Shown: in pieces, positions 12,559 to 24,034 of the stretch
Layout of the letters: every line of letters begins with the position of its first letter
Position numbering within the stretch: the stretch's first letter is position 1
Sequence record: MN850578.1
DNA: 64,000 nucleotides
DNA from: Escherichia phage nomo
Reading direction: 5' to 3' (one strand)
The notes under the pieces: model-generated
What the model was told of the DNA's origin: nothing
The model's input: the letters and a program-made list of their open reading frames with translations, nothing else
Databases searched by the model: none
Program-made: the position numbers and the translations under genes

Positions 12559-12795
12559 TTAATCTTCGTAAATCAGGATTTCTGCTTTAGGTTTTCGTGC
12601 TTTCATGTCCAGCTCTATCCAGTGCACCATAGCTGTTTCAAGAAAAACAGCCTGGATGCATCCGTCCTCAGCAGCGTGTCCTAGCAGCATAACAAGATCT
12701 TCTCCTTCGTCATCTGCATCACGAACATACAGAATCTCCCCGGGTTCAAAATCTTTAACAACCTGATTGTTGGATAATTTACGAATTTTCGCCAT
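12559..12795 (-). CDS. hypothetical acidic protein
   Basis: 78-aa ORF with RBS. Confidence 0.5.
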   Translation of the reverse strand: MAKIRKLSNNQVVKDFEPGEILYVRDADDEGEDLVMLLGHAAEDGCIQAVFLETAMVHWIELDMKARKPKAEILIYED

Positions 12796-12796
12796 A

Positions 12797-13060
12797 TCAG
12801 AAACCCTCTAAAAAGCTCTTGTAGAAAACAATCTCAGTATCCACACCAGTCACAATCTTGTCGTTCCTGATTTCATCGGTAAGATAGGTGTCAAAACGCA
12901 GAACCTGTGTGGTGTTGTCACACATCCACTCAGCTGTGACCATTGCGAAAATCTTAGCATCTTCATTATCTGGTGTGAATGTTACCACCTCACCGCACTT
13001 AAACTTTTCGATAGGCTGAGTGTTAGCTTTCGGTTCTGCGATAGTGATTTTTGTGGTCAT
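12797..13060 (-). CDS. hypothetical protein, tandem paralog 1 of 3
   Basis: 87 aa; shares length and pattern (CG.VV, ...TE.D..I.ILGE) with the next two genes. Confidence 0.55.
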   Translation of the reverse strand: MTTKITIAEPKANTQPIEKFKCGEVVTFTPDNEDAKIFAMVTAEWMCDNTTQVLRFDTYLTDEIRNDKIVTGVDTEIVFYKSFLEGF

Positions 13061-13323
13061 TATTCTCCTCCTTCTTTTGAATAGCTTGTCTCTCCAAGGA
13101 TGGTAATTTTGGTGTCAAGCTCTGTAACTTTCATGTTTGGCGGCAGATCGTACAACTCATTATTTTCTAAATCGAACCCCCACACACAATGTTCTCCTGT
13201 TTTGACAATCATAACTATGTTTTGAATGCCGTCTCCGTCGCAACTTACCACGGTCCCACACGGAAAACTGTCTGCACGCTTTTTGTTCTTCACCTTAGAA
13301 TTGAATACAATGCTGGTAGCCAT
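13060..13323 (-). CDS. hypothetical protein, tandem paralog 2 of 3
   Basis: 87 aa; start overlaps the stop of the adjacent paralog. Confidence 0.55.
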   Translation of the reverse strand: MATSIVFNSKVKNKKRADSFPCGTVVSCDGDGIQNIVMIVKTGEHCVWGFDLENNELYDLPPNMKVTELDTKITILGETSYSKEGGE

Positions 13324-13586
13324 TATTGTTCCTCCACCATAACTTCGCCAAGAATTTCTATGCAGGCATCCATTTCTGTAACAACCAAACTGTGAGGCAG
13401 TTCTACAAACACCTTTCTGAACAGGTCAAATACCCCAACATATATGTTTGCAGGATGTGATTTTACAACAAGTGCTGTATTCACATCCCCAAGTTCATCA
13501 ACAAACATCACCACAGTGCCTGGAGCTACTGAGGACAGATACTTCTTAGTTTTACGGTTTGATGCAAATTTTAACTCTGTTGCCAT
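13323..13586 (-). CDS. hypothetical protein, tandem paralog 3 of 3
   Basis: 87 aa; same architecture. Confidence 0.55.
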   Translation of the reverse strand: MATELKFASNRKTKKYLSSVAPGTVVMFVDELGDVNTALVVKSHPANIYVGVFDLFRKVFVELPHSLVVTEMDACIEILGEVMVEEQ

Positions 13587-13601: not shown

Positions 13602-15083
13602 TTACTTAGCGTACTCGATTAATTCCACAGTTTTCCCAAAGCTCGGGATATAATTTTTATTATACCCCTCAGTGAGGACCCATAGAGTATCGTACTTTTT
13701 CCACTTGTTGTCAACAACCTTTTGTTCAAAGTTATGCTCAAAGTATAGGTCGGTCAGGACGATGACATCTTTTGCATTAGGTATGTTGGCATCCAGATAC
13801 TCGAACACGCAAGCAGCTGTTGTGCCCCATGTTGAGTGGACCTCATAGTTGACCATCTCGTCTATGTTGCCGCGAGTGTATACTTTAACCTCTCCAACCT
13901 CAGTTGACCAACAGAACATTGTAACCTTAAACTCTTTATACAGATTGCACAATCCGGTGATTTCATTGAACATTTTCTTTAAAGTTCTTTGAGAGATCGA
14001 GCCAGAAACGTCTAAAGCCACCACAATATCTATAGTGTTTTCCGGATTACGACCAGGAACAATAACGTGCTGGTTCTTGTTTATAGCCCCAACTTTTCGC
14101 ATTGTGCTGGTCAAAGACCCAGATCGGCGACCAGGTTTTCTGTAGGTCAGTTCGGCCTTTCTTTTAGACAACATACGTTGCTTAATGATGTCTATATAGT
14201 TGATTACAGGCCTACCTCTGTTCTTGACAAACTCACGCACCGCCTCAGGGCAACGGCCTCCGGACGCTTGCATTGCTGCCTCCAGCATATCACCAGAGTC
14301 CTGCATGGCCTGATCTTTATCAGATTGGCTGATTACAGGTTGTGGCTGATCATACCCCATAGCCTTTCCAAGATTATCACTGGTGCCACCGTTCCCACTC
14401 ATGTGATCATCGGTTTGTCGCTTATCACTTTGAGAGTTCTCACCTTTACCGTTCTTACTTTTACCGTTATTCTGATCTCTTTGCTTATCAAGAACTGCAT
14501 AAACGTTCTCAGCAATCCATCCATGAAACTTCATGTCGCAGTAGCAGCTGGCTAAGAAGCCAAAAGGCTTACCTTTCATGAACGTAGTGCTTTTCCCCTT
14601 CGGGAAGAAAACACAAGGAGGTTTGCTAAAGTCAACCACAAGGCCTGTGTTGATAACGTGATCACAAGCAATATTGAACAGTTCCGGCTCAAAGCTTTTA
14701 CCACGGACTAGGTGATCACAGATAATATGCCCCACCTCATGTGACAGAAGGAAGGCCACCTCTTTCACAGATTTTGGGGAATAGAAAACTTCAGCCATCT
14801 CAAACTGCTCGTCAGTTAGAGAAGCCTTAAGAATAGCCTTGCGTTCATCAGCCAATCCCATAATGAACTCAGGACTGTAATAGATGCGTTTATGGTCGGT
14901 TGCCATGGTGGAGCACCATGTGTGGTTTTCTACGAACTGCAACCCTGACAATAGTGTGCCATAAAACGGCAGCTTTTCAAGGAGATACATACGTGCAGCC
15001 TGCAACATTCTCAGGGAATCATCTTTCTGCGAGGCAATGATTTCTGAACTTCTGCTATCCATTAAAACTCCAGAAGGGGCCAT
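13602..15083 (-). CDS. vWA-domain protein with putative Zn-metallopeptidase motif
   Basis: HExxH (SHEVGHIICDH) in N-terminal half; MIDAS DxSGS (VVALDVSGSIS) in C-terminal half; alternative start at 15062 has better RBS (ctggag). Confidence 0.65.
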   Translation of the reverse strand: MAPSGVLMDSRSSEIIASQKDDSLRMLQAARMYLLEKLPFYGTLLSGLQFVENHTWCSTMATDHKRIYYSPEFIMGLADERKAILKASLTDEQFEMAEVFYSPKSVKEVAFLLSHEVGHIICDHLVRGKSFEPELFNIACDHVINTGLVVDFSKPPCVFFPKGKSTTFMKGKPFGFLASCYCDMKFHGWIAENVYAVLDKQRDQNNGKSKNGKGENSQSDKRQTDDHMSGNGGTSDNLGKAMGYDQPQPVISQSDKDQAMQDSGDMLEAAMQASGGRCPEAVREFVKNRGRPVINYIDIIKQRMLSKRKAELTYRKPGRRSGSLTSTMRKVGAINKNQHVIVPGRNPENTIDIVVALDVSGSISQRTLKKMFNEITGLCNLYKEFKVTMFCWSTEVGEVKVYTRGNIDEMVNYEVHSTWGTTAACVFEYLDANIPNAKDVIVLTDLYFEHNFEQKVVDNKWKKYDTLWVLTEGYNKNYIPSFGKTVELIEYAK

Positions 15084-15095
15084 TGGCCCCTGTCA

Positions 15096-16139
15096 TTATT
15101 TAACGTGTTTGAAAATACCTGCCAACTCGGTCATTGTCATGCGGGTGGTCTTCATAAGATCTGTCATAGCTTTCTCCATAATTGGAGATACTACCATAAA
15201 GTTTCCTTTAGTGAAACCTTTATTCCAGTCGGTCACCAACAGGGGTTTAAGTCCAGCTCCAAGACGTTCACCAGTTAAAGCACAGCATTTGCGAATATAC
15301 GAACTCTTAAATTGGCTGAACGACAGATCAACTTTCATACCTACATCGTAGAACGTTTGACAATAGAAAGTGTAAGCTTTGGCAATCTCAACATCATCAG
15401 GTAGTGCAGGAACCTCTTCTGTAAGCTCCTCTTCGACCTCCTGAGTCTCTTTTTCCTCTTCATGCACCTGTTGCGTCATTTCTTCAATCTCTTCTGTGAT
15501 AGGCTCGTTTACAATGTCGGAAATGTGCTTCTTGGGTGCACGATAAGTAACTTTAGACATCGGTAGCATATCTTCCTCCTCTTCTTCGTCAAAGAGTGCT
15601 AGTTTATCCTCTTCCGTTCCATATTGCAAGATGAAATCTTCAAAAGTATAATCACCTTTCAATTTCTCCATACGCTCTTCGCTCAGGTGGAGCATCATCT
15701 GCTGGACAATTTTTCGATCAGTTTCGTCTTTAATCAAGACTGCAGTCTTTTTATCTACCAGACAGTCCTTTAGAGAGTTGCATCTCAATCCCACCACACA
15801 ACAGTTATCAACCGCATAAGGACCTTCATCATCTATCCGCTCCAGAGATGGGTAGAAAGGATTTCCCAGCCCGTTTTCATCTGTGTGCATGTCAAAAGGT
15901 ATAAGGGTATAGTCGCATACTCCATCTCCTAAAAGTTTTTTACCAAATAGGAGGTATTCTTCCCATGACAGGTCGAACTCTATATCTCGTTTCCGTGCGT
16001 TATTCTGTTTGCGTCTATATTTTTTGAGCAAGCGCTCTAACTCTTCTGGTGTATAATATTTTTCAAGATTCATGAGTCGTCTCTCGTGCTCTGTAAGTGA
16101 AGAAATCGTATCAATTGTCTCAACAGATGTCAACATCAA
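15096..16139 (-). CDS. hypothetical protein with degenerate endonuclease VII/HNH-like motif and acidic linker
   Basis: KRDIEFDLSWEEYLL..GDGVCDYT..ERIDDEGPYAVDNCCVVGLRCNSLK resembles phage endo VII/HNH core but lacks canonical His; internal in-frame start MLPMSKVTYRA has AGGAGG RBS, so may be two genes. Confidence 0.4.
   Translation of the reverse strand: MMLTSVETIDTISSLTEHERRLMNLEKYYTPEELERLLKKYRRKQNNARKRDIEFDLSWEEYLLFGKKLLGDGVCDYTLIPFDMHTDENGLGNPFYPSLERIDDEGPYAVDNCCVVGLRCNSLKDCLVDKKTAVLIKDETDRKIVQQMMLHLSEERMEKLKGDYTFEDFILQYGTEEDKLALFDEEEEEDMLPMSKVTYRAPKKHISDIVNEPITEEIEEMTQQVHEEEKETQEVEEELTEEVPALPDDVEIAKAYTFYCQTFYDVGMKVDLSFSQFKSSYIRKCCALTGERLGAGLKPLLVTDWNKGFTKGNFMVVSPIMEKAMTDLMKTTRMTMTELAGIFKHVK
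15537..15565. repeat. left arm of perfect 29-bp inverted repeat
   Basis: tgcacgataagtaactttagacatcggta is the exact reverse complement of 17399-17427. Confidence 0.9.
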
Positions 16140-16145
16140 AAACGT

Positions 16146-16174
16146 GTTGACTTTACTCTAACTCCACAATATAG
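16146..16174 (+). promoter_or_regulatory. sigma70-like promoter for 16216 gene
   Basis: TTGACT, 17-bp spacer, TATAGT; lies in palindrome tgtcaacatcaaaaacgtgttgac. Confidence 0.55.
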
Positions 16175-16215
16175 TGCACACATTCGAAAGAAAACTAACA
16201 TAGGAGCACTTACTT

Positions 16216-17115
16216 ATGGCAAATCTTAACAGTTTTAGTACGCGGTGGAAACAGGACATAACAACCAATCTTTCAGCTGGGGACATCCTTTCTGCAATTT
16301 ACGAGGCTTTAGATGATAAAGCTACTTCAAAAGCGGTTTGTACCAACCCACTAATTCCTGTAGTGATGAAGGTTATTGAGCGTAGATTGGTATCTGGGTC
16401 TGATAAGTGGACATATTTAGATAATGAAGGACACACCTATTCCAATGGGTACGTCGATATAAAAGTAGAATACGCGGTATCATACCGCCGGAGCGGTTCT
16501 GTAACTTTCAACTTCTCTGGAGGTTTTCGATCTCTGGCTACCTCACCTTTTGTTTCCTCAGAGGAGAAGTATGAGCTACCATTTCTTTGGATGATGGCTA
16601 ACGCGACAGGAAAAACCCCCGTTAGCATCCGAGTAAAATACAACTACAACGGATCTAGTAAGATCTATGCCGAAAGTGTCTCAGCAAGTTTTTATTTTGT
16701 GATGGGGGATGGAATCCTCAAACATATAAAGATGTGCGATATGCATGATGTTATAAATGAAGTGACTGATAAGAATGTTCTAGTGAAAGACCTCAACAAT
16801 TTTTATACACCCGGAGACTATTACGTCAGCCGTCCACTGTGCATCTTTAATGCCGCACACCCTCTAGGTGAGTATTTGATCGCCAATAGCGATATTGCCA
16901 ATAACCGCTTCGAGGTAGCAAGAGTTCAGAATGAGGTATTGACATCTTGCAAGAGCGGTGATAAGTTTACCGAAGAAGAGATGGGTGTTTTAGAAATGAT
17001 GGGATATAAGTGTAGCCTTTGGGTAGATGAGGTGTTTAATGATTGCATCTATGGACAGGATATTTACCCATTAAAGAAGTATACTGATACAAGTTTAATT
17101 TATGCGAGGGTTTGA
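16216..17115 (+). CDS. hypothetical protein
   Basis: RBS taggag; 299 aa. Confidence 0.55.
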   Translation: MANLNSFSTRWKQDITTNLSAGDILSAIYEALDDKATSKAVCTNPLIPVVMKVIERRLVSGSDKWTYLDNEGHTYSNGYVDIKVEYAVSYRRSGSVTFNFSGGFRSLATSPFVSSEEKYELPFLWMMANATGKTPVSIRVKYNYNGSSKIYAESVSASFYFVMGDGILKHIKMCDMHDVINEVTDKNVLVKDLNNFYTPGDYYVSRPLCIFNAAHPLGEYLIANSDIANNRFEVARVQNEVLTSCKSGDKFTEEEMGVLEMMGYKCSLWVDEVFNDCIYGQDIYPLKKYTDTSLIYARV

Positions 17116-17390
17116 CTATGATGAAGGCGTGTGGTAATGTATACTACGTCGGTGAACATGTTCAGGCAGACAGTGTGTGGAAATCTATTAAGTCCACCAC
17201 TGACGATGCCTTTCTGAGTGGACTATGTTTCCCCAATCCGGGAGACATCCTCCCTCATCCTGGAGATTTTGTTGTCAACAAGATGGACGGTTATACCGTG
17301 TGCCTGATGGTTGAAAAAATATTTTTAGACACTAGACACAATCACCGTCTTGTGTTAAAATTTCAAGAATGTAAAATGACAATTGCCTAA
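17112..17390 (+). CDS. hypothetical protein
   Basis: ATGA overlap with upstream stop; RBS gaggg. Confidence 0.5.
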   Translation: MTMMKACGNVYYVGEHVQADSVWKSIKSTTDDAFLSGLCFPNPGDILPHPGDFVVNKMDGYTVCLMVEKIFLDTRHNHRLVLKFQECKMTIA

Positions 17391-17398
17391 GGAGACCT

Positions 17399-17427
17399 TA
17401 CCGATGTCTAAAGTTACTTATCGTGCA
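17399..17427. repeat. right arm of perfect 29-bp inverted repeat
   Basis: taccgATGTCTAAAGTTACTTATCGTGCA; contains the start codon and first 8 codons of the 17404 gene. Confidence 0.9.
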
Positions 17428-17760
17428 GCTATTTACTGCAATGAACACCCAATCAATAATGATGGTCACTGCCTTTTTAAAGAAAATCAATTGGGCTGTA
17501 TTGTCCTCCCTGATGAAGGGGAAGGTTATCTTATTGCATTGACAGGGTTTGAACCTGAGGCTCTGGAAGCCAATCTGGACTACCTGGTAGAAGAGGGTGC
17601 TGCAGACCTGGTTGCCAATGGCCTCTCCATAAGCCTTGACGAAGTAGAGCGCTTCATGGGCAATTACCGTGTAGTGCGTGAGTTTACTATCGAGGTGGAA
17701 ACTCCCGAGTGGAGTAGCCATGAAACTAATGCCGAAGAAAAAGAAGAGGAGGTAGAATAA
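17404..17760 (+). CDS. hypothetical acidic protein (N-terminus MSKVTYRA)
   Basis: ATG 17404 nine nt after AAGGAG; track TTG start at 17383 less likely. Confidence 0.5.
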   Translation: MSKVTYRAAIYCNEHPINNDGHCLFKENQLGCIVLPDEGEGYLIALTGFEPEALEANLDYLVEEGAADLVANGLSISLDEVERFMGNYRVVREFTIEVETPEWSSHETNAEEKEEEVE

Positions 17761-18017
17761 TGAAAGTGCAGATCTTGACTAATGCCGAGAAGATGTTTAT
17801 TGAAGATACACCTTTTGAAGCTGGTGAGCTACAGTTCGTTTATTTTGTTGACTTAGATAAGGTGTTTCCTGCACTGAATCTAGGTTTGGATGAAGTTCCT
17901 CATAAGGTTTTGTGCCAAGTTGTTCGTGCCTTAGCGGCAGAGGGGGAGTTCCACACCCTTCAAGATGTCCAGACCTACGGGTATCTTGAACTACAACGAG
18001 AAGAAGAGGTGGACTGA
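17760..18017 (+). CDS. hypothetical protein
   Basis: RBS ggagg; ATGA-coupled. Confidence 0.5.
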   Translation: MKVQILTNAEKMFIEDTPFEAGELQFVYFVDLDKVFPALNLGLDEVPHKVLCQVVRALAAEGEFHTLQDVQTYGYLELQREEEVD

Positions 18018-18019
18018 TA

Positions 18020-18400
18020 ATGGCTCAGTGGAAGACAACAGTTGACCTTCATGATCAGTGGTTAGGACGCATCACTGAAGACGGGAAGCTAGTGGAGTGG
18101 GACAATAAGCATGTTAGCGAGTTGGCAAGTATTGTGGCTGGCAAGTTACGCTCCAAGTTCCCTGAACAACTGGATCCTGATAGTTCAAAGTTCGATCCTG
18201 AGTTGGAGGATGTTGTATACTACTTCGATACCGTGGATGACTACGATGCGTGGTTTGCAGCACGGGAGCTTTACCCACAAGGCTCTGCTATGCGCCAGAT
18301 GGAAGAAGATTATCCTCCGTGTGAGCAATTCAATAGTGCAATGACTTGCCTCTATGATTGGGCAGATAAGAACCTTGTCTGGATTCGGACTGCATTTTAG
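18020..18400 (+). CDS. hypothetical protein
   Basis: RBS gaggtgg. Confidence 0.5.
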   Translation: MAQWKTTVDLHDQWLGRITEDGKLVEWDNKHVSELASIVAGKLRSKFPEQLDPDSSKFDPELEDVVYYFDTVDDYDAWFAARELYPQGSAMRQMEEDYPPCEQFNSAMTCLYDWADKNLVWIRTAF

Positions 18401-18444
18401 TGGGCAGGAATGGCGGCAAGGATGCCGCTTAAGGAGTAGTAGAG

Positions 18445-18714
18445 ATGTTATACCAGCAATATGAACTTCGTGCAGAAAAAGAGTTAAATTTTGACAAAGA
18501 TATTCACAGATATTATTATGGGAAAGTTAGAGGGCAAGCAAGAAAGTGTACTCCAACACTCTTTTATGCCAGCAGACGACTAGCGCCAGAAGAGGCAACA
18601 GCAGAAAGGGTTGCGTACAACTGGAGAGTCACGTATGATATTGACAGATTCGATGTGATATCTGTTTTGGAAAACTTTGAAAACACTTACACACAAGTAG
18701 AGGACTTTTACTAA
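18445..18714 (+). CDS. hypothetical protein
   Basis: RBS aggag. Confidence 0.5.
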   Translation: MLYQQYELRAEKELNFDKDIHRYYYGKVRGQARKCTPTLFYASRRLAPEEATAERVAYNWRVTYDIDRFDVISVLENFENTYTQVEDFY

Positions 18715-19898
18715 TGTCAAGAAACGTATTCGAAAGTGGTCAAATCACTGTCCGTGAGTTGCCAGCTATTATTCAGTTTGCCCAACGTCATAGCCGATCT
18801 GTCCTAATTTTGGGACCAATGGGTGTGGGTAAAAGCCAGGTGATGAAGCAGATCGCTGATAATATGTTCGGTGAGCGAGATGACAACCTTGTTGACGTGC
18901 GACTGTCAGATAAAGATCCTGCCGACTTATCTGGGCTACCTATCCCTGTAGAAGCGGATGGAACTACACGTACAGTGTTTGCAATTCCAGAATTTTGGCC
19001 TGCGGATCCTGACTGGAGCGGAATTATCTTTCTGGATGAGCTCACTCATGCAGATAACTACCTGCAAAAGGTTGCAATGCAAATTATGCTTGACCACAAG
19101 TGCGGCACCTATGCATTCCCTAAGGGTTCTGTTTTTGTGGCTGCGGGTAACCGTTCTACAGATGGTGCGGTTCTTTCGGCGCTCGAAGCCCCTCTGGCTA
19201 ACCGTTTTATCATTGTAGAGGTTACAAGCAATGCAGAGGTGTTTATTGAGGACTACGCATTCCTCAACGGGGTTCACTCCTCTGTAATTGGGTATCTGAA
19301 AAGAGTTCCATCAGCTATTGATAATTATGAGGCTATGGCTGAGATTAATTGTCCATCTTTTGCCACACCACGATCTTGGGTTGCTGCATCTGACATCTTG
19401 CACGATTTTGACAGCGGTATTATTTCTGACGCTATGGCCCGTGTTCTTCTGCAAGGTGCTATTGGTCACACTGCAGCGGTAGAGATCTGGACATACCACA
19501 CCAAGAAACGCAATTTACCGGAAATCGGTCGGATTATGGCAGGTGGCTGCAAAGAATACGTAGGTCCTAAGCAGCCAGATATTTTGTGGATTCTTGGATC
19601 TGAAGGTTGTATCGCTATTCGTAATATGATGGAAAATGCAAGTATCTCAGACGAAGATCTTGTCAGCTGTGTGGCAAACTTCCTCGATTTCCTTTGGGAA
19701 AACTTCAAGGACGAGAACCGAGATTTTGTATTCTCAGTCTTTATGGCGATGATGAAACCTAATGCCTTAGGAAATGCCTTGCTTATCGGTAAAGGGCGTG
19801 ACAAGATTGTTGCTCAGCTGATCAAAGCATACCCAAACCTGATGAAGATTGTAAAAGAGTTTGGTGAAGAGTTTAGCGCCATTTTGGCTAAAGCTTAA
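18714..19898 (+). CDS. MoxR-like AAA+ ATPase
   Basis: Walker A LILGPMGVGKSQ, Walker B IIFLDELTHAD, sensor region AAGNRS, MoxR-like ALEAPLANRF. Confidence 0.7.
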   Translation: MSRNVFESGQITVRELPAIIQFAQRHSRSVLILGPMGVGKSQVMKQIADNMFGERDDNLVDVRLSDKDPADLSGLPIPVEADGTTRTVFAIPEFWPADPDWSGIIFLDELTHADNYLQKVAMQIMLDHKCGTYAFPKGSVFVAAGNRSTDGAVLSALEAPLANRFIIVEVTSNAEVFIEDYAFLNGVHSSVIGYLKRVPSAIDNYEAMAEINCPSFATPRSWVAASDILHDFDSGIISDAMARVLLQGAIGHTAAVEIWTYHTKKRNLPEIGRIMAGGCKEYVGPKQPDILWILGSEGCIAIRNMMENASISDEDLVSCVANFLDFLWENFKDENRDFVFSVFMAMMKPNALGNALLIGKGRDKIVAQLIKAYPNLMKIVKEFGEEFSAILAKA

Positions 19899-20301: not shown

Positions 20302-20329
20302 CCCCCGCTTCGGCGGGGATTTTCTATTT
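20302..20329 (+). terminator. rho-independent terminator
   Basis: ccccgc-ttcg-gcgggg hairpin then attttctattt. Confidence 0.6.
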
Positions 20330-20338
20330 GGAGTCATT

Positions 20339-20839
20339 GTGAAAATTAAGATCTTTGCTATTATTTTGAGCGCACTTTTATCGCTGCCTGTTGTTGCAGC
20401 ACCAAAACAAAAAGTATATCATACTTGCAAGCCCTCAGATACTAAGGAAAACATTCTGGCATGCAATATCTACAGGGAGGCTAGAGGGGATGGCACGATG
20501 GGTATGCTGGCATCAGGGTTTGCCACACTAAACAGGAAATCTCACCCCAAATACCCAGACACTATAAGAAAGATTGTCTACCAACCTAACCAGTTTTCGT
20601 GGACAAACCACGGCAAAACTTTTAAGGTGACAGAAAAAGATTCATGGGATCACGCTAAAAGTCTTGCAAAGATGCTTCTAAAGGTCTATAATAACAACCA
20701 TGTTGCATACATGGCTATGGACATAACAGGTGGAGCAACACACTACCATACAACCAAAGTACGACCGAAATGGGCAAAAAAGATGCAAAGGACAGCTCAA
20801 TTCGGGAGTCATATCTACTACAAGGAGCGCAATAAATGA
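20339..20839 (+). CDS. secreted SleB-like cell-wall hydrolase (putative endolysin)
   Basis: N-terminal signal-like segment; CNIYREARGDG...ATLNR...QPNQFSW matches Hydrolase_2/SleB signature; GTG start after ggag. Confidence 0.6.
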   Translation: MKIKIFAIILSALLSLPVVAAPKQKVYHTCKPSDTKENILACNIYREARGDGTMGMLASGFATLNRKSHPKYPDTIRKIVYQPNQFSWTNHGKTFKVTEKDSWDHAKSLAKMLLKVYNNNHVAYMAMDITGGATHYHTTKVRPKWAKKMQRTAQFGSHIYYKERNK

Positions 20840-22818
20840 TTGTAAACAGTAATGAAACTAAAGCAGTACTAACCGGAAATATGGAGGTCACCAGGGGCTC
20901 AATTTCTCTGAACAAAGAGACTTTTGGGCTAATCATTAAAGGGATTTACGAAGATAAGGTGCTGGCAAGCTGCCGTGAACCAATCTTCAATGCTGTGGAC
21001 TCCCATGTTGAGTCTGGACGGGGTGATGTACCGATCATCATTCACTCTCCTACAGACCTTGAACCATACTTCTTTGTGCAGGACGTTGGATTGGGCATGT
21101 CAGAAGAGATGGTCCGCAACACTTTCATGAATCTCGGGGAGTCAACCAAGCGCAACAGCAACGCTCTGGTAGGTAATAAAGGTGTTGGTTCAAAGGCTCC
21201 GTTCAGTATGGTGGACACTTTCGATGTTATCAGTGTGCACAATGGTGTTGAAAGCACATATCTATTGTTCTTGGATCAGGGTATCCCAAACGTTACCAAG
21301 ATCCGCGAGCGAAAGACTGAAGAGCACAACGGGGTAAAAGTTCAGTTCCATGTTAAGAAAGAGCATGTTCTGAAATATCGCACTGCTATTGCGTCATGCC
21401 TACGCTATGCAAAGTTTCCGTTTACCGTTACCGACCCTATGACCAGTAAGATGCTGGAAGGTGACAAGGTTGAGGCGCAGTATCGCTACGAGAAAGATGG
21501 TTGGAAAATGACTATCCTGAAAGGTTATACCAGCTCTGATGAGAGCCGTGTGGTGATGGGACACCAACCTTACCGCTCTAAGTTTCTGGAAACATTGACA
21601 GACTACCCTGCAATCTGTGTAGAGATCCCTATCGGGGATTGCAATATTAACCCTGGGCGCGAATGGACCATAGAGGGGCACGACGATGGTGGATTCCAGG
21701 ATCGCCTGGAGGCCTTTGTCAAAGAAGGTATACGTCTTCGTGGGGCAGAAGTTGTTGCGGAATTGGAGACAGCAAAAACATCCTCAGAAGCACGTGAGAT
21801 GATGAAGAACAGTGGAGTGTTCGGACACATCTTCGGCAAAAACTTTATGTGGAACCGTTGGGAAGAAACAGGGCTTGGCGACTTAGGCGATTGTGAAATT
21901 TTCGCTGGCGGCTTAAATAAAGGCCGCATAGGCTATGCTCGTTACGGAAAGTCGGAGTTCTTACGAGGTGTATACCTTGTATTTAACGACGGAGACGGCA
22001 AATATAACCGAAATAAGTGTAACTACTTAAGCGAGATCACCGGACGCAACGTTTTCTATTGCCGTAACACGGATCTGATGGAAGAGTTTAAAGAAGCGGC
22101 ACACCACCCGTTCTTTGCAGATACGGTCAAATTGTTATCAGAGCTCCCTCGCCGTCCTGTAAAGAAAGGTGAAACAAAAACTCACTATGAGCCAGGGTAT
22201 TGGGTTAAAAAACTTGAGAAAGATGGTTACTTCCGTCGTGAGCGTATTACTAAGGCAGAGTTCAAGAAGATTAAGCACTGCATTCCTTATGAGGGTGATA
22301 TCCAACGTGGAAGTTGTTGGCTGGGACAGCTAAGTAACATCTACCAGCAAAATTATGACCGTGTGCGTGCGGCACTCAAGATTCCTGAAGGGGAAGATCT
22401 GTACCTGGTATCAGAATCTCGTCTGCTTTGGACTGATCCTGATTGCCAGTATGTTACAGAGAAAAATGTGGAACATTTGTTGAAAGAGGACGCCTGGAAA
22501 TTCTTACTGACTCGCGCAGCAAATGAAACTTCATATGACAGCCTGTATAGACAATTAGGGAAAATTATCCCCATGCAAGATTTTGGAAATTATCGGCCAC
22601 ATTTCCACAAGTGGGAAGGTAACACCGCGTGGAAGCACAGTGAGCTAAATCATCGTGCCAAAATCTTAATCGCCAACCGAGTCAAGTGCGGGAAGGCCTA
22701 TATTGCAAGATTGGAAAAGAAATATCCACTTTTGAAGCATGTGGGCTTGAAATATTGGGACACTCCTGCTATGATTGAATACCGTGAACTGATCGACGCA
22801 AAGAATAACACCAAATAA
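20836..22818 (+). CDS. rIIA: rIIA-like protein (GHKL ATPase fold)
   Basis: Bergerat-fold motifs EPIFNAVDSH, VQDVGLGMS, GNKGVGSKAPFSMVDTFDVISVHNG; closely parallels recalled T4 rIIA N-terminus. Confidence 0.75.
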   Translation: MIVNSNETKAVLTGNMEVTRGSISLNKETFGLIIKGIYEDKVLASCREPIFNAVDSHVESGRGDVPIIIHSPTDLEPYFFVQDVGLGMSEEMVRNTFMNLGESTKRNSNALVGNKGVGSKAPFSMVDTFDVISVHNGVESTYLLFLDQGIPNVTKIRERKTEEHNGVKVQFHVKKEHVLKYRTAIASCLRYAKFPFTVTDPMTSKMLEGDKVEAQYRYEKDGWKMTILKGYTSSDESRVVMGHQPYRSKFLETLTDYPAICVEIPIGDCNINPGREWTIEGHDDGGFQDRLEAFVKEGIRLRGAEVVAELETAKTSSEAREMMKNSGVFGHIFGKNFMWNRWEETGLGDLGDCEIFAGGLNKGRIGYARYGKSEFLRGVYLVFNDGDGKYNRNKCNYLSEITGRNVFYCRNTDLMEEFKEAAHHPFFADTVKLLSELPRRPVKKGETKTHYEPGYWVKKLEKDGYFRRERITKAEFKKIKHCIPYEGDIQRGSCWLGQLSNIYQQNYDRVRAALKIPEGEDLYLVSESRLLWTDPDCQYVTEKNVEHLLKEDAWKFLLTRAANETSYDSLYRQLGKIIPMQDFGNYRPHFHKWEGNTAWKHSELNHRAKILIANRVKCGKAYIARLEKKYPLLKHVGLKYWDTPAMIEYRELIDAKNNTK

Positions 22819-22828
22819 GGAGACAGCT

Positions 22829-24034
22829 ATGATTTTCATCTACGAACATTTCAAAACTCGTAAAGAAGCACGCGACCGCCGTGCAGAACTTGAGAAGAAG
22901 GGTTTCACATGTGCTATTGAGAAAGGTACTACAACATGGACACTGGCAGTAGGTGCCCCAGAGCTGTTTGATCCTGACCGAGACAGTGTCTGCTATACCC
23001 GTGAGGATTTTGAAACCCGCGAAGAGGCCCGTTTATTCCGCTACGGACTGGAAGACAACGGTAAGTACGCCATGATCTTAGATTCAGGTGAAGGTTCCGT
23101 TAAACGTTGGGGCGTGGTATACCCACTGTGTGTTGTTCACGGTGTGGGGGTCACTGGGGTAGCAATCAAGTCAGAAGAACCTTTAGTAGAAGTCAAAGAT
23201 CCGGTGCTGGAAGTGGTGAGCAGTGTGTCTCAGCAACAGTCTCGAAGCATCGAGCCTTTGGTAGTTATTTGCGGGGAACTCCTCCAGATCACCTGCAACG
23301 AAGGCATTTTTGAAATTCGCCGCAGCGAAAGTGAGGAAGTTTACCAGAAAGTCTTCGACCATATTTCTGTTCAGGAATATGATGAGGCAATTGGTGAAAT
23401 CCTTGTCTGGCTGGAACGCAAGAATGAGTTCACCACACTTGCAGACAACCTGATCATGAAAGATGGTAAGCTCTACTACTACGGTGTAGAGATGCGATCC
23501 ACCATTGCAAAGAAAATTGAGGAAGATTATGTAGATGGAACACTGGACGACCGATATGTTAAATTCCTTGTCCGTCTGCTACGCAACCCGTCTGCAAAAT
23601 CTGTGAACATGCTCTACGATTTCATGCAGGCTAATGACATCCAGGTTGCAGAAGATGGTCGAATCATTTGCTATAAGGGGGTTCAGTTTAACGGGAGCAG
23701 GTGGGTGGATTGGCACAGTGGTAAAGTTCCACAATACCAGGGTGCTTTTGTGTCCATGCCTCGTAACTTTGTAGAAGATGATCCGGAAGCTGCGTGTTCT
23801 TATGGCCTGCACTGCGCCAGCAAAGAGTATGCAGCGGGCTATGGCACTGTAATGATGGTTATGGTTGACCCTGCGGATGTGGTTAGTGTGCCATACCAAC
23901 ACAACAGTGCTAAGTGCCGTGCATGCCGCTACGAAATCGTAGCAGCACCGGAATCACGCAAAGATGGCGATCCGATTGAATACGTAGTTGACCGTGATGG
24001 TAACATCATCGACATTATCTACGAGGAGGCGTAA
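22829..24034 (+). CDS. rIIB: rIIB-like protein
   Basis: C-terminal blocks LYDFMQANDIQVAEDG, CSYGLHCASKEY, DPADVVSVPYQHNSAKCRACRYEIV parallel recalled T4 rIIB; immediately downstream of rIIA. Confidence 0.75.
   Translation: MIFIYEHFKTRKEARDRRAELEKKGFTCAIEKGTTTWTLAVGAPELFDPDRDSVCYTREDFETREEARLFRYGLEDNGKYAMILDSGEGSVKRWGVVYPLCVVHGVGVTGVAIKSEEPLVEVKDPVLEVVSSVSQQQSRSIEPLVVICGELLQITCNEGIFEIRRSESEEVYQKVFDHISVQEYDEAIGEILVWLERKNEFTTLADNLIMKDGKLYYYGVEMRSTIAKKIEEDYVDGTLDDRYVKFLVRLLRNPSAKSVNMLYDFMQANDIQVAEDGRIICYKGVQFNGSRWVDWHSGKVPQYQGAFVSMPRNFVEDDPEAACSYGLHCASKEYAAGYGTVMMVMVDPADVVSVPYQHNSAKCRACRYEIVAAPESRKDGDPIEYVVDRDGNIIDIIYEEA

Follow-up and report, generated by a model that had tools for sequence, protein, structure and literature searches.

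We analyzed two genes of Escherichia phage nomo that lie on a 64,000-nucleotide stretch of sequence record MN850578.1; the whole of this stretch is called the window below. One gene, on the minus strand, encodes a protein that joins a metallopeptidase-like domain to a von Willebrand factor A (vWA) domain, and the other, on the plus strand, encodes an AAA+ ATPase of the MoxR class. An earlier reading of the letters alone (the original prediction) had placed the two open reading frames (ORFs) on opposite strands, and the ORF list confirms the coordinates and strands of both, with 3,631 bp between the divergent genes. In a sequence search with the 7.5-kb stretch around them, many Vequintavirus (rV5-like) coliphages matched at 99.5 to 99.8% identity, with naswa, CarlMeissner/Bas48, Murica, and EdH4 among the close matches; the window comes from a Vequintavirus, an rV5-like coliphage. 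In these relatives the vWA gene is labeled "putative metallopeptidase," "metallopeptidase - contains von Willebrand factor domain," or "VWA-like domain containing protein," and their GenBank records call the other gene "MoxR ATPase" or "ATPase." The coordinates of all features are collected in Table 1.

The minus-strand ORF reaches back to an ATG at 15083, which would give a protein of 493 amino acids (aa), and the original prediction had taken this as the start. The loop of a GC-rich hairpin contains that first ATG. The second ATG, at 15062, is preceded by a GGAG Shine-Dalgarno sequence and agrees with the 486-aa coding sequence (CDS) of GenBank relatives. The ORF itself is present, but its true start is probably 15062; residue numbers given here follow the 493-aa ORF. 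The product matches two Pfam families in succession, DUF2201_N ("putative metallopeptidase domain") and DUF2201 ("VWA-like domain") (PF13203 + PF09967; 98.9 bits against a gathering score of 23.2, and 44 bits against 26.4). Homologues were gathered, the nearest from close phages and the most distant from bacteria with 21% identity, and 31 of them were aligned, leaving only 14 invariant columns. Besides T59, these columns form two sets: H115-E116-x-x-H119-x4-H124 with A139-x-D141, and the residues of a metal ion-dependent adhesion site (MIDAS), D358-x-S360-G361-S362, G420-T421, and D445. An HExxH metallopeptidase-like motif and a vWA MIDAS had been claimed for this one product, and both the Pfam domains and the invariance of these residues bear the claim out. 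N145 is almost invariant in the 31- and 12-sequence alignments of the family, and the arginines R319 and R320 of the YRKPGRR segment are conserved at ≥90%; this Y-x-R-P-x-R-R motif may enter the pore, mimic a substrate, or be a site of processing. A low-complexity linker region of varying length is found in all family members of the 31-sequence alignment.

A PDB search with the single vWA-peptidase sequence gave no match, and profiles were needed. The family profile aligned the DxSGS segment to the MIDAS of the integrin I-domain at 5e-5; the MIDAS motif (DxSxS, Thr, Asp) is complete, and the vWA domain has the Rossmann-like vWA fold. The N-terminal domain showed weak similarity to the zincin families M48, SprT-like, and minigluzincin MJ1213 (E 0.007). 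The invariance of the Glu in HExxH argues for a catalytic N-terminal domain and against metal binding alone. Models of defence systems (PADLOC) did not match the vWA-peptidase.

For the plus-strand product, the original prediction had spoken of clear MoxR-type motifs. The MoxR class was upheld by homologue profiles, an AlphaFold2 (AF2) model, and Foldseek, but the motifs are not clear in the sequence alone, which stays below the Pfam cut-offs (16.7 bits against 22 for AAA_5, PF07728) and has no match to AAA_3 (PF07726). A PDB search with the ATPase sequence alone likewise returned P-loop-level matches to Clp proteins. Among homologues at 30 to 35% identity to the window ATPase, 10 or 11 of 26 match Pfam (AAA_5 at 3e-11, AAA_3 at 3e-8, bpMoxR at 1e-5), and the ATPase-family profile matches the AAA_5 modules of midasin at 8.5e-13. 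Walker A, Walker B, N146, R164, and the sensor-2 residue R220 are all invariant in alignments of 26 and 28 ATPase sequences. A conserved DxRLS...D..G.P segment (D61, R63, L64, D71, G74) precedes the hairpin of the helix-2 insert, and LANRF is the counterpart of the "LDRF" arginine-finger region of MoxR proteins, which the profile aligns with the "nRf" segment of midasin. The AF2 model (predicted local distance difference test score, pLDDT, of 84.5) has the helix-2 hairpin and, at about residues 129 to 134, a short two-strand element before the sensor-1 strand, both read from its secondary structure. When this model was compared with the PDB by Foldseek, ranks 1 to 19 were taken by NorQ (alone or with the NorD vWA domain) and CbbQ2 (E 6e-9 to 9e-7, target template-modeling score about 0.6); CbbQ 5c3c and MoxR 2r44 followed further down the list. 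Taken together, the Pfam domains of the homologues and the midasin profile match, the invariant motifs, and the modeled hairpins with their Foldseek matches support the assignment of the predicted protein as a divergent member of the MoxR class. The PADLOC defence models gave P-loop-level noise only with the ATPase, and searches of NCBIfam and PADLOC with both genes yielded no useful match. APE2220, tried as a guide to the MoxR subfamily, turned out to be CoxD and was set aside.

We then asked how the two genes are arranged elsewhere. In Sulfurivermis and in a gammaproteobacterial metagenome-assembled genome, the DUF2201 gene is preceded, at about 110 bp and in the same orientation, by an AAA/AAA_5 gene, and in an N4-like roseophage an unannotated 392-aa gene stands directly upstream of DUF2201. 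The window ATPase is homologous to both the Sulfurivermis neighbor (E 7e-37, 31% identity over 272 aa) and the roseophage neighbor (E 6e-18). Loci anchored on DUF2201 were fetched (71 + 17 viral and 80 bacterial), and both genes were placed by tblastn. Among 174 DUF2201-anchored loci, all but one of those with enough flank have an ATPase homologue upstream of DUF2201. The two genes share a strand with a gap of <500 bp in 98 loci, comprising most of the bacterial loci and most N4-like contigs, and share a strand within 2 kb in 34 more; in 16 contigs of one uncultured clade they lie on the same strand at 2 to 9 kb. The divergent arrangement on opposite strands, 3.5 to 5.3 kb apart, was seen in exactly 22 loci and the window, all of the Vequintavirus-like clade, with DUF2201 identities from 38% to 100%. 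In Gammaproteobacteria the ATPase gene is directly upstream of DUF2201, with gaps of 11 to 870 bp, and the genes are adjacent in all 80 sampled genomes with enough flank.

The reverse search, anchored on the ATPase, found DUF2201 nearby in all but one of 31 viral loci. The sole exception in both directions is one 136-kb contig (L015/L185), which encodes both genes at least 35 kb apart; they are thus retained together even when unlinked, and no sampled genome holds one gene without the other. The adjacent, co-oriented pair also occurs in N4 (gp24/gp25), in the jumbo phage GAP32 (GAP32_210/211), in uncultured phage contigs, and in Certrevirus, and tblastn searches of 50,697 cultured-phage records recovered vWA-peptidase homologues in 610 and ATPase homologues in 812. 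The two-way linkage in DUF2201- and ATPase-anchored loci strongly supports the conclusion that the two window genes are halves of one conserved cassette that has been split in this clade. This synteny in 174 DUF2201-anchored and 31 ATPase-anchored loci, with the co-retention of the genes, also supports the functional MoxR/vWA module that had been proposed from the window alone. One protein considered as a fusion of the ATPase with DUF2201, P0025 (819 aa), was rejected; it is a longer DUF2201 protein with no AAA domain. In a large clade of uncultured phages (L027-L076 and L210-L212), the adjacent MoxR/DUF2201 pair forms part of a conserved block, with a 5′-3′ exonuclease gene about 2 to 8 kb upstream and ThyA or ThyX about 1 to 4 kb downstream. 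Of those relatives of the window ATPase that retain a score on Pfam AAA_3/AAA_5, the ATPases of this clade are the closest.

As judged from the sampled loci, the ancestral arrangement is the ATPase gene followed by that of its partner, adjacent and on the same strand. Certrevirus, a member of the same subfamily, retains this co-linear order, the two genes being separated by about 104 bp or by an inserted gene for a small HNH homing endonuclease, and the split is therefore the derived state. A single rearrangement at the root of the Vequintavirus-like clade is the simplest explanation; DUF2201 has since remained with a 347-aa gene, and the ATPase with rIIA/rIIB. The ATPase gene is linked to rIIA/rIIB (plus strand, within 20339-24034 of the window) in most sampled Vequintavirus-like loci with sufficient flank, including the L185 contig, in which the vWA-peptidase gene is distant; in N4, gp24/gp25 lie about 3 kb upstream of the rIIA-like gene (L178, 8249 onward).

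The 347-aa gene is called "anti-sigma factor" or "HNH endonuclease" in relatives. Residues ~12 to 150 of its product match PHROG families, namely, phrog_3118, T4 Srd-like anti-sigma/sigma70 decoy families, and endonuclease VII families; a very acidic stretch follows, and the protein has no Pfam match. The start of this gene is probably Met22, at about 16076, because the minus-strand promoter described below falls within the first 21 codons. In all sampled split-clade loci this gene immediately precedes DUF2201, and none of the Certrevirus, N4-like, jumbo-phage, or bacterial loci contains it. We considered it as a third universal component of the cassette and rejected this idea because it is absent from the co-linear loci, which makes it a lineage-specific companion. 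The remaining ORFs between the two cassette genes are poorly conserved even inside the split clade. Directly downstream of the vWA-peptidase gene are four small ORFs of 87, 87, 87, and 78 aa (12559-13586, minus strand), of which the first two are clearly paralogous (phrog_10698 in both cases, 39% identity), with only a weak alignment for the other two.

The split also bears on whether the two products still act together. An alternative is that the genes became independent after it, the ATPase serving, for example, the adjoining rII-linked functions and the vWA-peptidase acting alone or with its 347-aa neighbor. Their opposite strands and different transcription units would fit such independence, as would the stable new neighbor that each half has gained and the one contig in which the genes are at least 35 kb apart. 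Against this, both genes are kept in every genome examined, down to about 38 to 44% identity within the split clade, neither occurs without the other in the sample, and the catalytic and MIDAS residues are still intact in that clade. We consider independence very improbable.

The two divergent transcription units of the window start from a region of 76 bp with predicted back-to-back sigma70-like promoters, whose -35 boxes form the palindrome GTCAACATCAAAAACGTGTTGAC; PhagePromoter independently predicts both sites in phage Gotham. The -35 boxes constitute a perfect 8-bp inverted repeat, GTCAACAT...(7)...GTGTTGAC (window 16129-16151), that could be a shared operator for a regulator in addition to the two promoters. 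With its upstream A-tract, the plus-strand site fits the Certrevirus consensus AAAA(N3-4)TGTTGAC(N17-19)TATAAT, which the study of CB7 assigns to early, and possibly middle, Certrevirus genes. A GTTGAC-N15-20-TATAAT-like motif occurs at 12 sites in the window compared with ~0.9 in mononucleotide shuffles; several of the 12 are preceded by an A-tract and are similar to the Certrevirus early/middle consensus. This motif could serve to map the transcription units of the phage. The rightward unit comprises seven genes up to and including the ATPase gene, then one more gene, then a strong terminator; a high-scoring site some 195 bp before the ATPase start may be an internal promoter. The vWA-peptidase gene is the second gene of the leftward unit and follows the GC-rich hairpin, whose T-tail on the minus strand is only weak and which may thus be an attenuator or an RNA-stability element.

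Table 1. Features of the two divergent transcription units and of the encoded cassette proteins (window coordinates)
Feature	Coordinates	Strand	Remarks
DUF2201-family CDS (vWA-peptidase)	13602..15062	-	486 aa from ATG 15062; N-terminal zincin-like domain, disordered linker, helical region, C-terminal vWA domain
HEVGHIICDH, HExxHxxxxH (H115, E116, H119, H124)	14712..14741	-	Predicted zinc site and catalytic Glu; invariant in 31- and 12-sequence alignments
A139-C-D141, AxD in helix after HExxH helix	14661..14669	-	D141 candidate further metal ligand or active-site residue; A139 and D141 invariant
Linker, residues 209-235, between peptidase-like domain and remainder	14379..14459	-	Charged, Gly/Ser/Lys/Asp-rich; pLDDT < 50
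YRKPGRR, nearly invariant Y-x-R-P-x-R-R	14124..14144	-	Just N-terminal of vWA domain; RPxRR aligned in all clades
MIDAS residues	13749..14012	-	D358-V-S360-G-S362 (13998-14012), T421 (13821-13823), D445 (13749-13751); all invariant
GC-rich hairpin AGGGGCC-AAT-GGCCCCT	15075..15091	-	Between 347-aa gene and DUF2201 start; annotated as terminator in phage Murica
347-aa ORF, phrog_3118	15096..16139	-	First gene of leftward unit; extent of mechanical ORF
Back-to-back predicted sigma70-like promoters	16105..16175	both	TTGACA-17-TACGAT (16133-16105, -); (T)GTTGAC-N17/18-TATAGT (16146-16175, +)
Predicted sigma70-like site TTGACA-17-TATTAT	18491..18519	+	11/12, top score of the region; inside 89-aa ORF, ~195 bp upstream of ATPase start
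MoxR-class AAA+ ATPase CDS, phrog_1297	18714..19898	+	394 aa; one AAA+ module and C-terminal helical extension; seventh gene of rightward unit
Walker A, GPMGVGKS	18813..18836	+	G37, G39, K40, S41 invariant
Beta-hairpin, helix-2 insert, residues 75-90	18936..18983	+	Between Walker A helix and Walker B strand; AF2 strands 75-81 and 84-90
Walker B, IIFLDE	19023..19040	+	D108, E109 invariant
AGNRSTDGAVLSALEAPLANRF	19143..19208	+	Sensor-1 Asn146 at sensor-strand end and Arg164 in LANRF; A144, G145, N146, R147, D150, L161, N163, R164 invariant
Intrinsic terminator CCCCGCTTCGGCGGGG + T-tract	20303..20318	+	Closes rightward unit one gene past ATPase; also predicted in Gotham (ARNold) and Murica
GTTGAC-N15-20-TATAAT-like sites	16146, 24892, 25303, 40177, 40631, 43169, 46441	+	7 of the 12 sites
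GTTGAC-N15-20-TATAAT-like sites	61909, 61421, 59510, 50552, 7616	-	5 of the 12 sites

The pair lies outside the morphogenesis module of the window. On the plus strand its neighbors are genes for a SleB-like hydrolase, rIIA, rIIB, and a helicase, and on the left the tail-fibre genes end about 4.5 kb before the transcription unit that holds the vWA gene. The SleB-like cell-wall hydrolase, which has an N-terminal signal-like segment, is encoded between the terminator and rIIA. Other phage lineages carry the pair among genes for dCTP deaminase/dUTPase, ThyA/ThyX, and 5′-3′ exonuclease, and the dUTPase/dCTP deaminase and ThyA/ThyX genes are close to it in N4-like phages, in the large uncultured clade, and in GAP32. 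Neither dUTPase/dCTP deaminase nor ThyA/ThyX genes were found near the pair in any Vequintavirinae locus or anywhere in the window. We dropped this linkage as a clue to the client, which it does not identify because it is missing in Vequintavirinae, and kept it as a sign of a non-structural, middle-gene context. The promoter motifs and the gene neighborhood of the window point to early/middle expression rather than to a virion role.

These data bear on the published proposal for a homologous cassette, that a MoxR-vWA pair chaperones the assembly of a virion structure while the fused peptidase processes structural proteins (Iyer et al. 2021). This inference was drawn for group 2.2 jumbo phages (PMC7824862), which the window proteins match. 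A viral MoxR precedent is p618 of Acidianus two-tailed virus (ATV; PMC3893208), and a morphogenetic role would be compatible with the core status of the pair across Schitoviridae and with a leftward unit that heads toward the end of the tail-fibre genes. In every lineage examined, however, the neighbors of the cassette are early/middle, replication, or nucleotide-metabolism genes and the structural module lies elsewhere, both units of the window start at sigma70-type promoters of the kind assigned to early/middle Certrevirus genes, and the cassette is present in free-living bacteria without phage context. In N4, gp24/gp25 lie on what we take to be the early/middle strand and not among the late genes, which also counts against a virion role. 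The virion proteome of Certrevirus CB7, 26 proteins in all, lists no ATPase, peptidase, or vWA protein (PMC7344957), although an assembly factor that is not packaged would be missed there too. Together, these observations do not favor the published assembly/processing proposal, which we consider rather unlikely for the window genes. Nor do they favor the vWA protein being a structural component of the virion that is independent of the ATPase, a finding that the original prediction had named as its own refutation; the gene stands outside the morphogenesis module behind a sigma70-type promoter, and the CB7 proteome contains no such protein.

We instead propose, with moderate confidence, that the two ORFs are phage orthologues of a conserved cassette of a MoxR ATPase and a vWA-zincin partner, ancestrally adjacent and split here, whose products act as an ATP-gated, MIDAS-targeted protease or remodeller early or midway in infection. 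A rearrangement at the base of the Vequintavirus-like clade would have put the partner and the 347-aa gene on the opposite strand, so that both halves would now be transcribed divergently from the back-to-back sigma70-type promoters. By homology to NorQ/NorD and other MoxR-vWA pairs, we infer a physical interaction in which the ATPase would form a hexameric ring and dock on the vWA domain of the partner. In the NorQ/NorD complex, the NorQ pore receives a vWA finger, the C terminus of NorD touches NorQ, and NorQ remodels the NorD linker (PMC13036017). In the phage pair, the MIDAS site would grip an acidic residue of a target protein, and ATP hydrolysis would pull or twist the linker region of the partner; this remodelling might expose or position the zincin active site and so lead to cleavage of the bound target or of the partner itself. 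The target would be a host or phage protein, acted on within the infected cell during the early/middle phase.

The proteolytic outcome has to be set against a second possibility, that the pair is a non-proteolytic MoxR-vWA chaperone for metal insertion into, or maturation of, a metallo-enzyme, such as a nucleotide-metabolism enzyme of the phage or host, with HExxH holding or delivering the metal. All characterized MoxR-vWA pairs work in this way (FeB insertion by NorQD, and also CoxD, CbbQO, and RavA-ViaA), the nearest structures to the window ATPase are NorQ and CbbQ, linkage to dUTPase/dCTP deaminase and ThyA/ThyX recurs in three phage lineages, and bacterial neighbors include thioredoxin and ferrochelatase. 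However, the HExxH Glu does not vary within the family, a hallmark of a catalytic general base, and Pfam and all of the weak family links point to peptidases (M48, SprT-like, minigluzincin); the pyrimidine-metabolism linkage, moreover, is absent in Vequintavirinae and in the window. The invariant Glu leads us to favor the ATP-gated, MIDAS-targeted protease, and a pure chaperone appears improbable.

Several points weigh against the proposed protease/remodeller. Every characterized MoxR-vWA pair is a remodeller or a metal-insertion chaperone and none is a protease, and the sole published proposal for this phage cassette is virion assembly (PMC7824862). The N-terminal domain resembles characterized zincins only weakly (E 0.007 for minigluzincin MJ1213), and fold-search matches to it could not be separated from the vWA matches. 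The timing is deduced from promoter motifs and gene neighborhood only, a generic promoter scan of the local region was not above background (21 sites compared with 17.2 expected), and the leftward unit ends next to the tail-fibre genes. Finally, since the genes can be split, the pair evidently does not need tight co-translation.

A further-reaching version of the proposed mechanism, which we put forward only tentatively and do not expect to hold in full, is that the cassette represents a new kind of AAA+-coupled protease, in which a MoxR ring gates a MIDAS-selected zincin and with which lytic phages cleave a specific host protein early or midway in infection. Its users could be Schitoviridae, Vequintavirinae, large uncultured clades, and jumbo phages, and the host target could be, for example, a defence, nucleoid, or replication factor; early/mid cleavage of a host protein would explain the core status of the pair in Schitoviridae. 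The pair is a very widespread phage gene pair, core in Schitoviridae, and it is present in easily tested model phages, of which N4, the BASEL phages Bas46-50, and EdH4 are tractable. Once shown, its role would annotate hundreds of phage genomes and could reveal the coupling of a MoxR motor to proteolysis. The genes already have names in GenBank, and the type of cassette has been published; what we add is that the window genes are orthologous to the cassette of N4, jumbo phages, and bacteria, that their split is derived, that both genes are retained when unlinked, and that the context disfavors the virion-assembly idea.

The searches also brought to light annotation errors that are spreading through PHROGs. 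The family phrog_1314, which holds DUF2201 vWA-peptidases, is mislabeled "HNH endonuclease," and RefSeq records such as NC_041871 and NC_041869 carry the label. The 89-aa ORF upstream of the ATPase gene (18445-18714, plus strand) belongs to phrog_13164, which is labeled "ATPase" though it is without ATPase features, and many phage records therefore list "ATPase (x2)." In one Salmonella phage, the vWA-peptidase homologue is named "DNA repair ATPase." Separately, 16 GenBank records named Campylobacter phage, with C. jejuni as the host (e.g., MG065635.1, "Campylobacter phage C12," and MG065646.1, "Campylobacter phage D1"), are 98 to 99.8% identical to E. coli Vequintavirus genomes in the stretch around the two genes; the host assignment of these 16 unannotated records seems doubtful.

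In the literature searched, we found no experimental study of a phage or bacterial DUF2201 cassette, and the CRISPRi-ART paper, which uses EdH4 and N4, yielded data only on rII and capsid genes. Among the nearest known systems, midasin/Rea1 is unlike the window pair in being a giant single polypeptide with no peptidase domain, and the Mg-chelatase BchI/BchD is a three-subunit enzyme, again with no peptidase domain. NorQ/NorD, a MoxR protein of the CGN subfamily with its vWA partner (cryo-EM 2026, PMC13036017), differs in that NorD is without a peptidase domain, the identity is only about 18%, and the client and outcome, nitric oxide reductase and iron insertion, are unrelated to phage biology. 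In ATV, a MoxR-vWA system is needed for tail development (PMC7824862). By its description, p618 resembles the window ATPase as a virus-encoded MoxR-type ATPase that acts with a vWA protein (PMC3893208, PMC7824862), but ATV is an archaeal virus whose system has no peptidase domain and serves extracellular tail development.

Other counterparts are the bacterial operons of a MoxR-like ATPase and DUF2201 (COG3864-type "predicted metal-dependent peptidase"), whose domain content and invariant residues are the same as in the window. These operons are cellular, with neighbors such as thioredoxin and Hsp15, and encode shorter proteins (about 348 and 415 aa); before its HExxH helix, the phage vWA-peptidase carries ~35 additional residues as an insert. 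N4 gp24 (AAA+ ATPase) and gp25 were counted among the core proteins of N4-like viruses by Wittmann et al. 2020 (PMC7650795). Their homologues in the window are the ATPase and the DUF2201 protein (about 21 to 27% identity by tblastn). In N4, too, the genes lie a few kilobases upstream of rIIA/rIIB-like genes, but they are adjacent and co-oriented, with dCTP deaminase following. The pair described by Iyer, Anantharaman, Krishnan, Burroughs, and Aravind (2021, Viruses 13:63; PMC7824862), for which an assembly/processing role was proposed by analogy with ATV, consists, as in the window, of a MoxR ATPase and a vWA protein whose N-terminal domain is a metallopeptidase domain. By tblastn, the window proteins found jumbo-phage homologues at 25 to 28% identity; GAP32_210/211 are an adjacent ATPase and DUF2201 pair. 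Unlike that of Iyer et al., the window pair belongs to a non-jumbo myophage of 137 kb and is split between opposite strands at a distance of 3.6 kb; the adjacent, co-oriented order of the published phage cassette is not seen there, and its content is the same in a derived arrangement.

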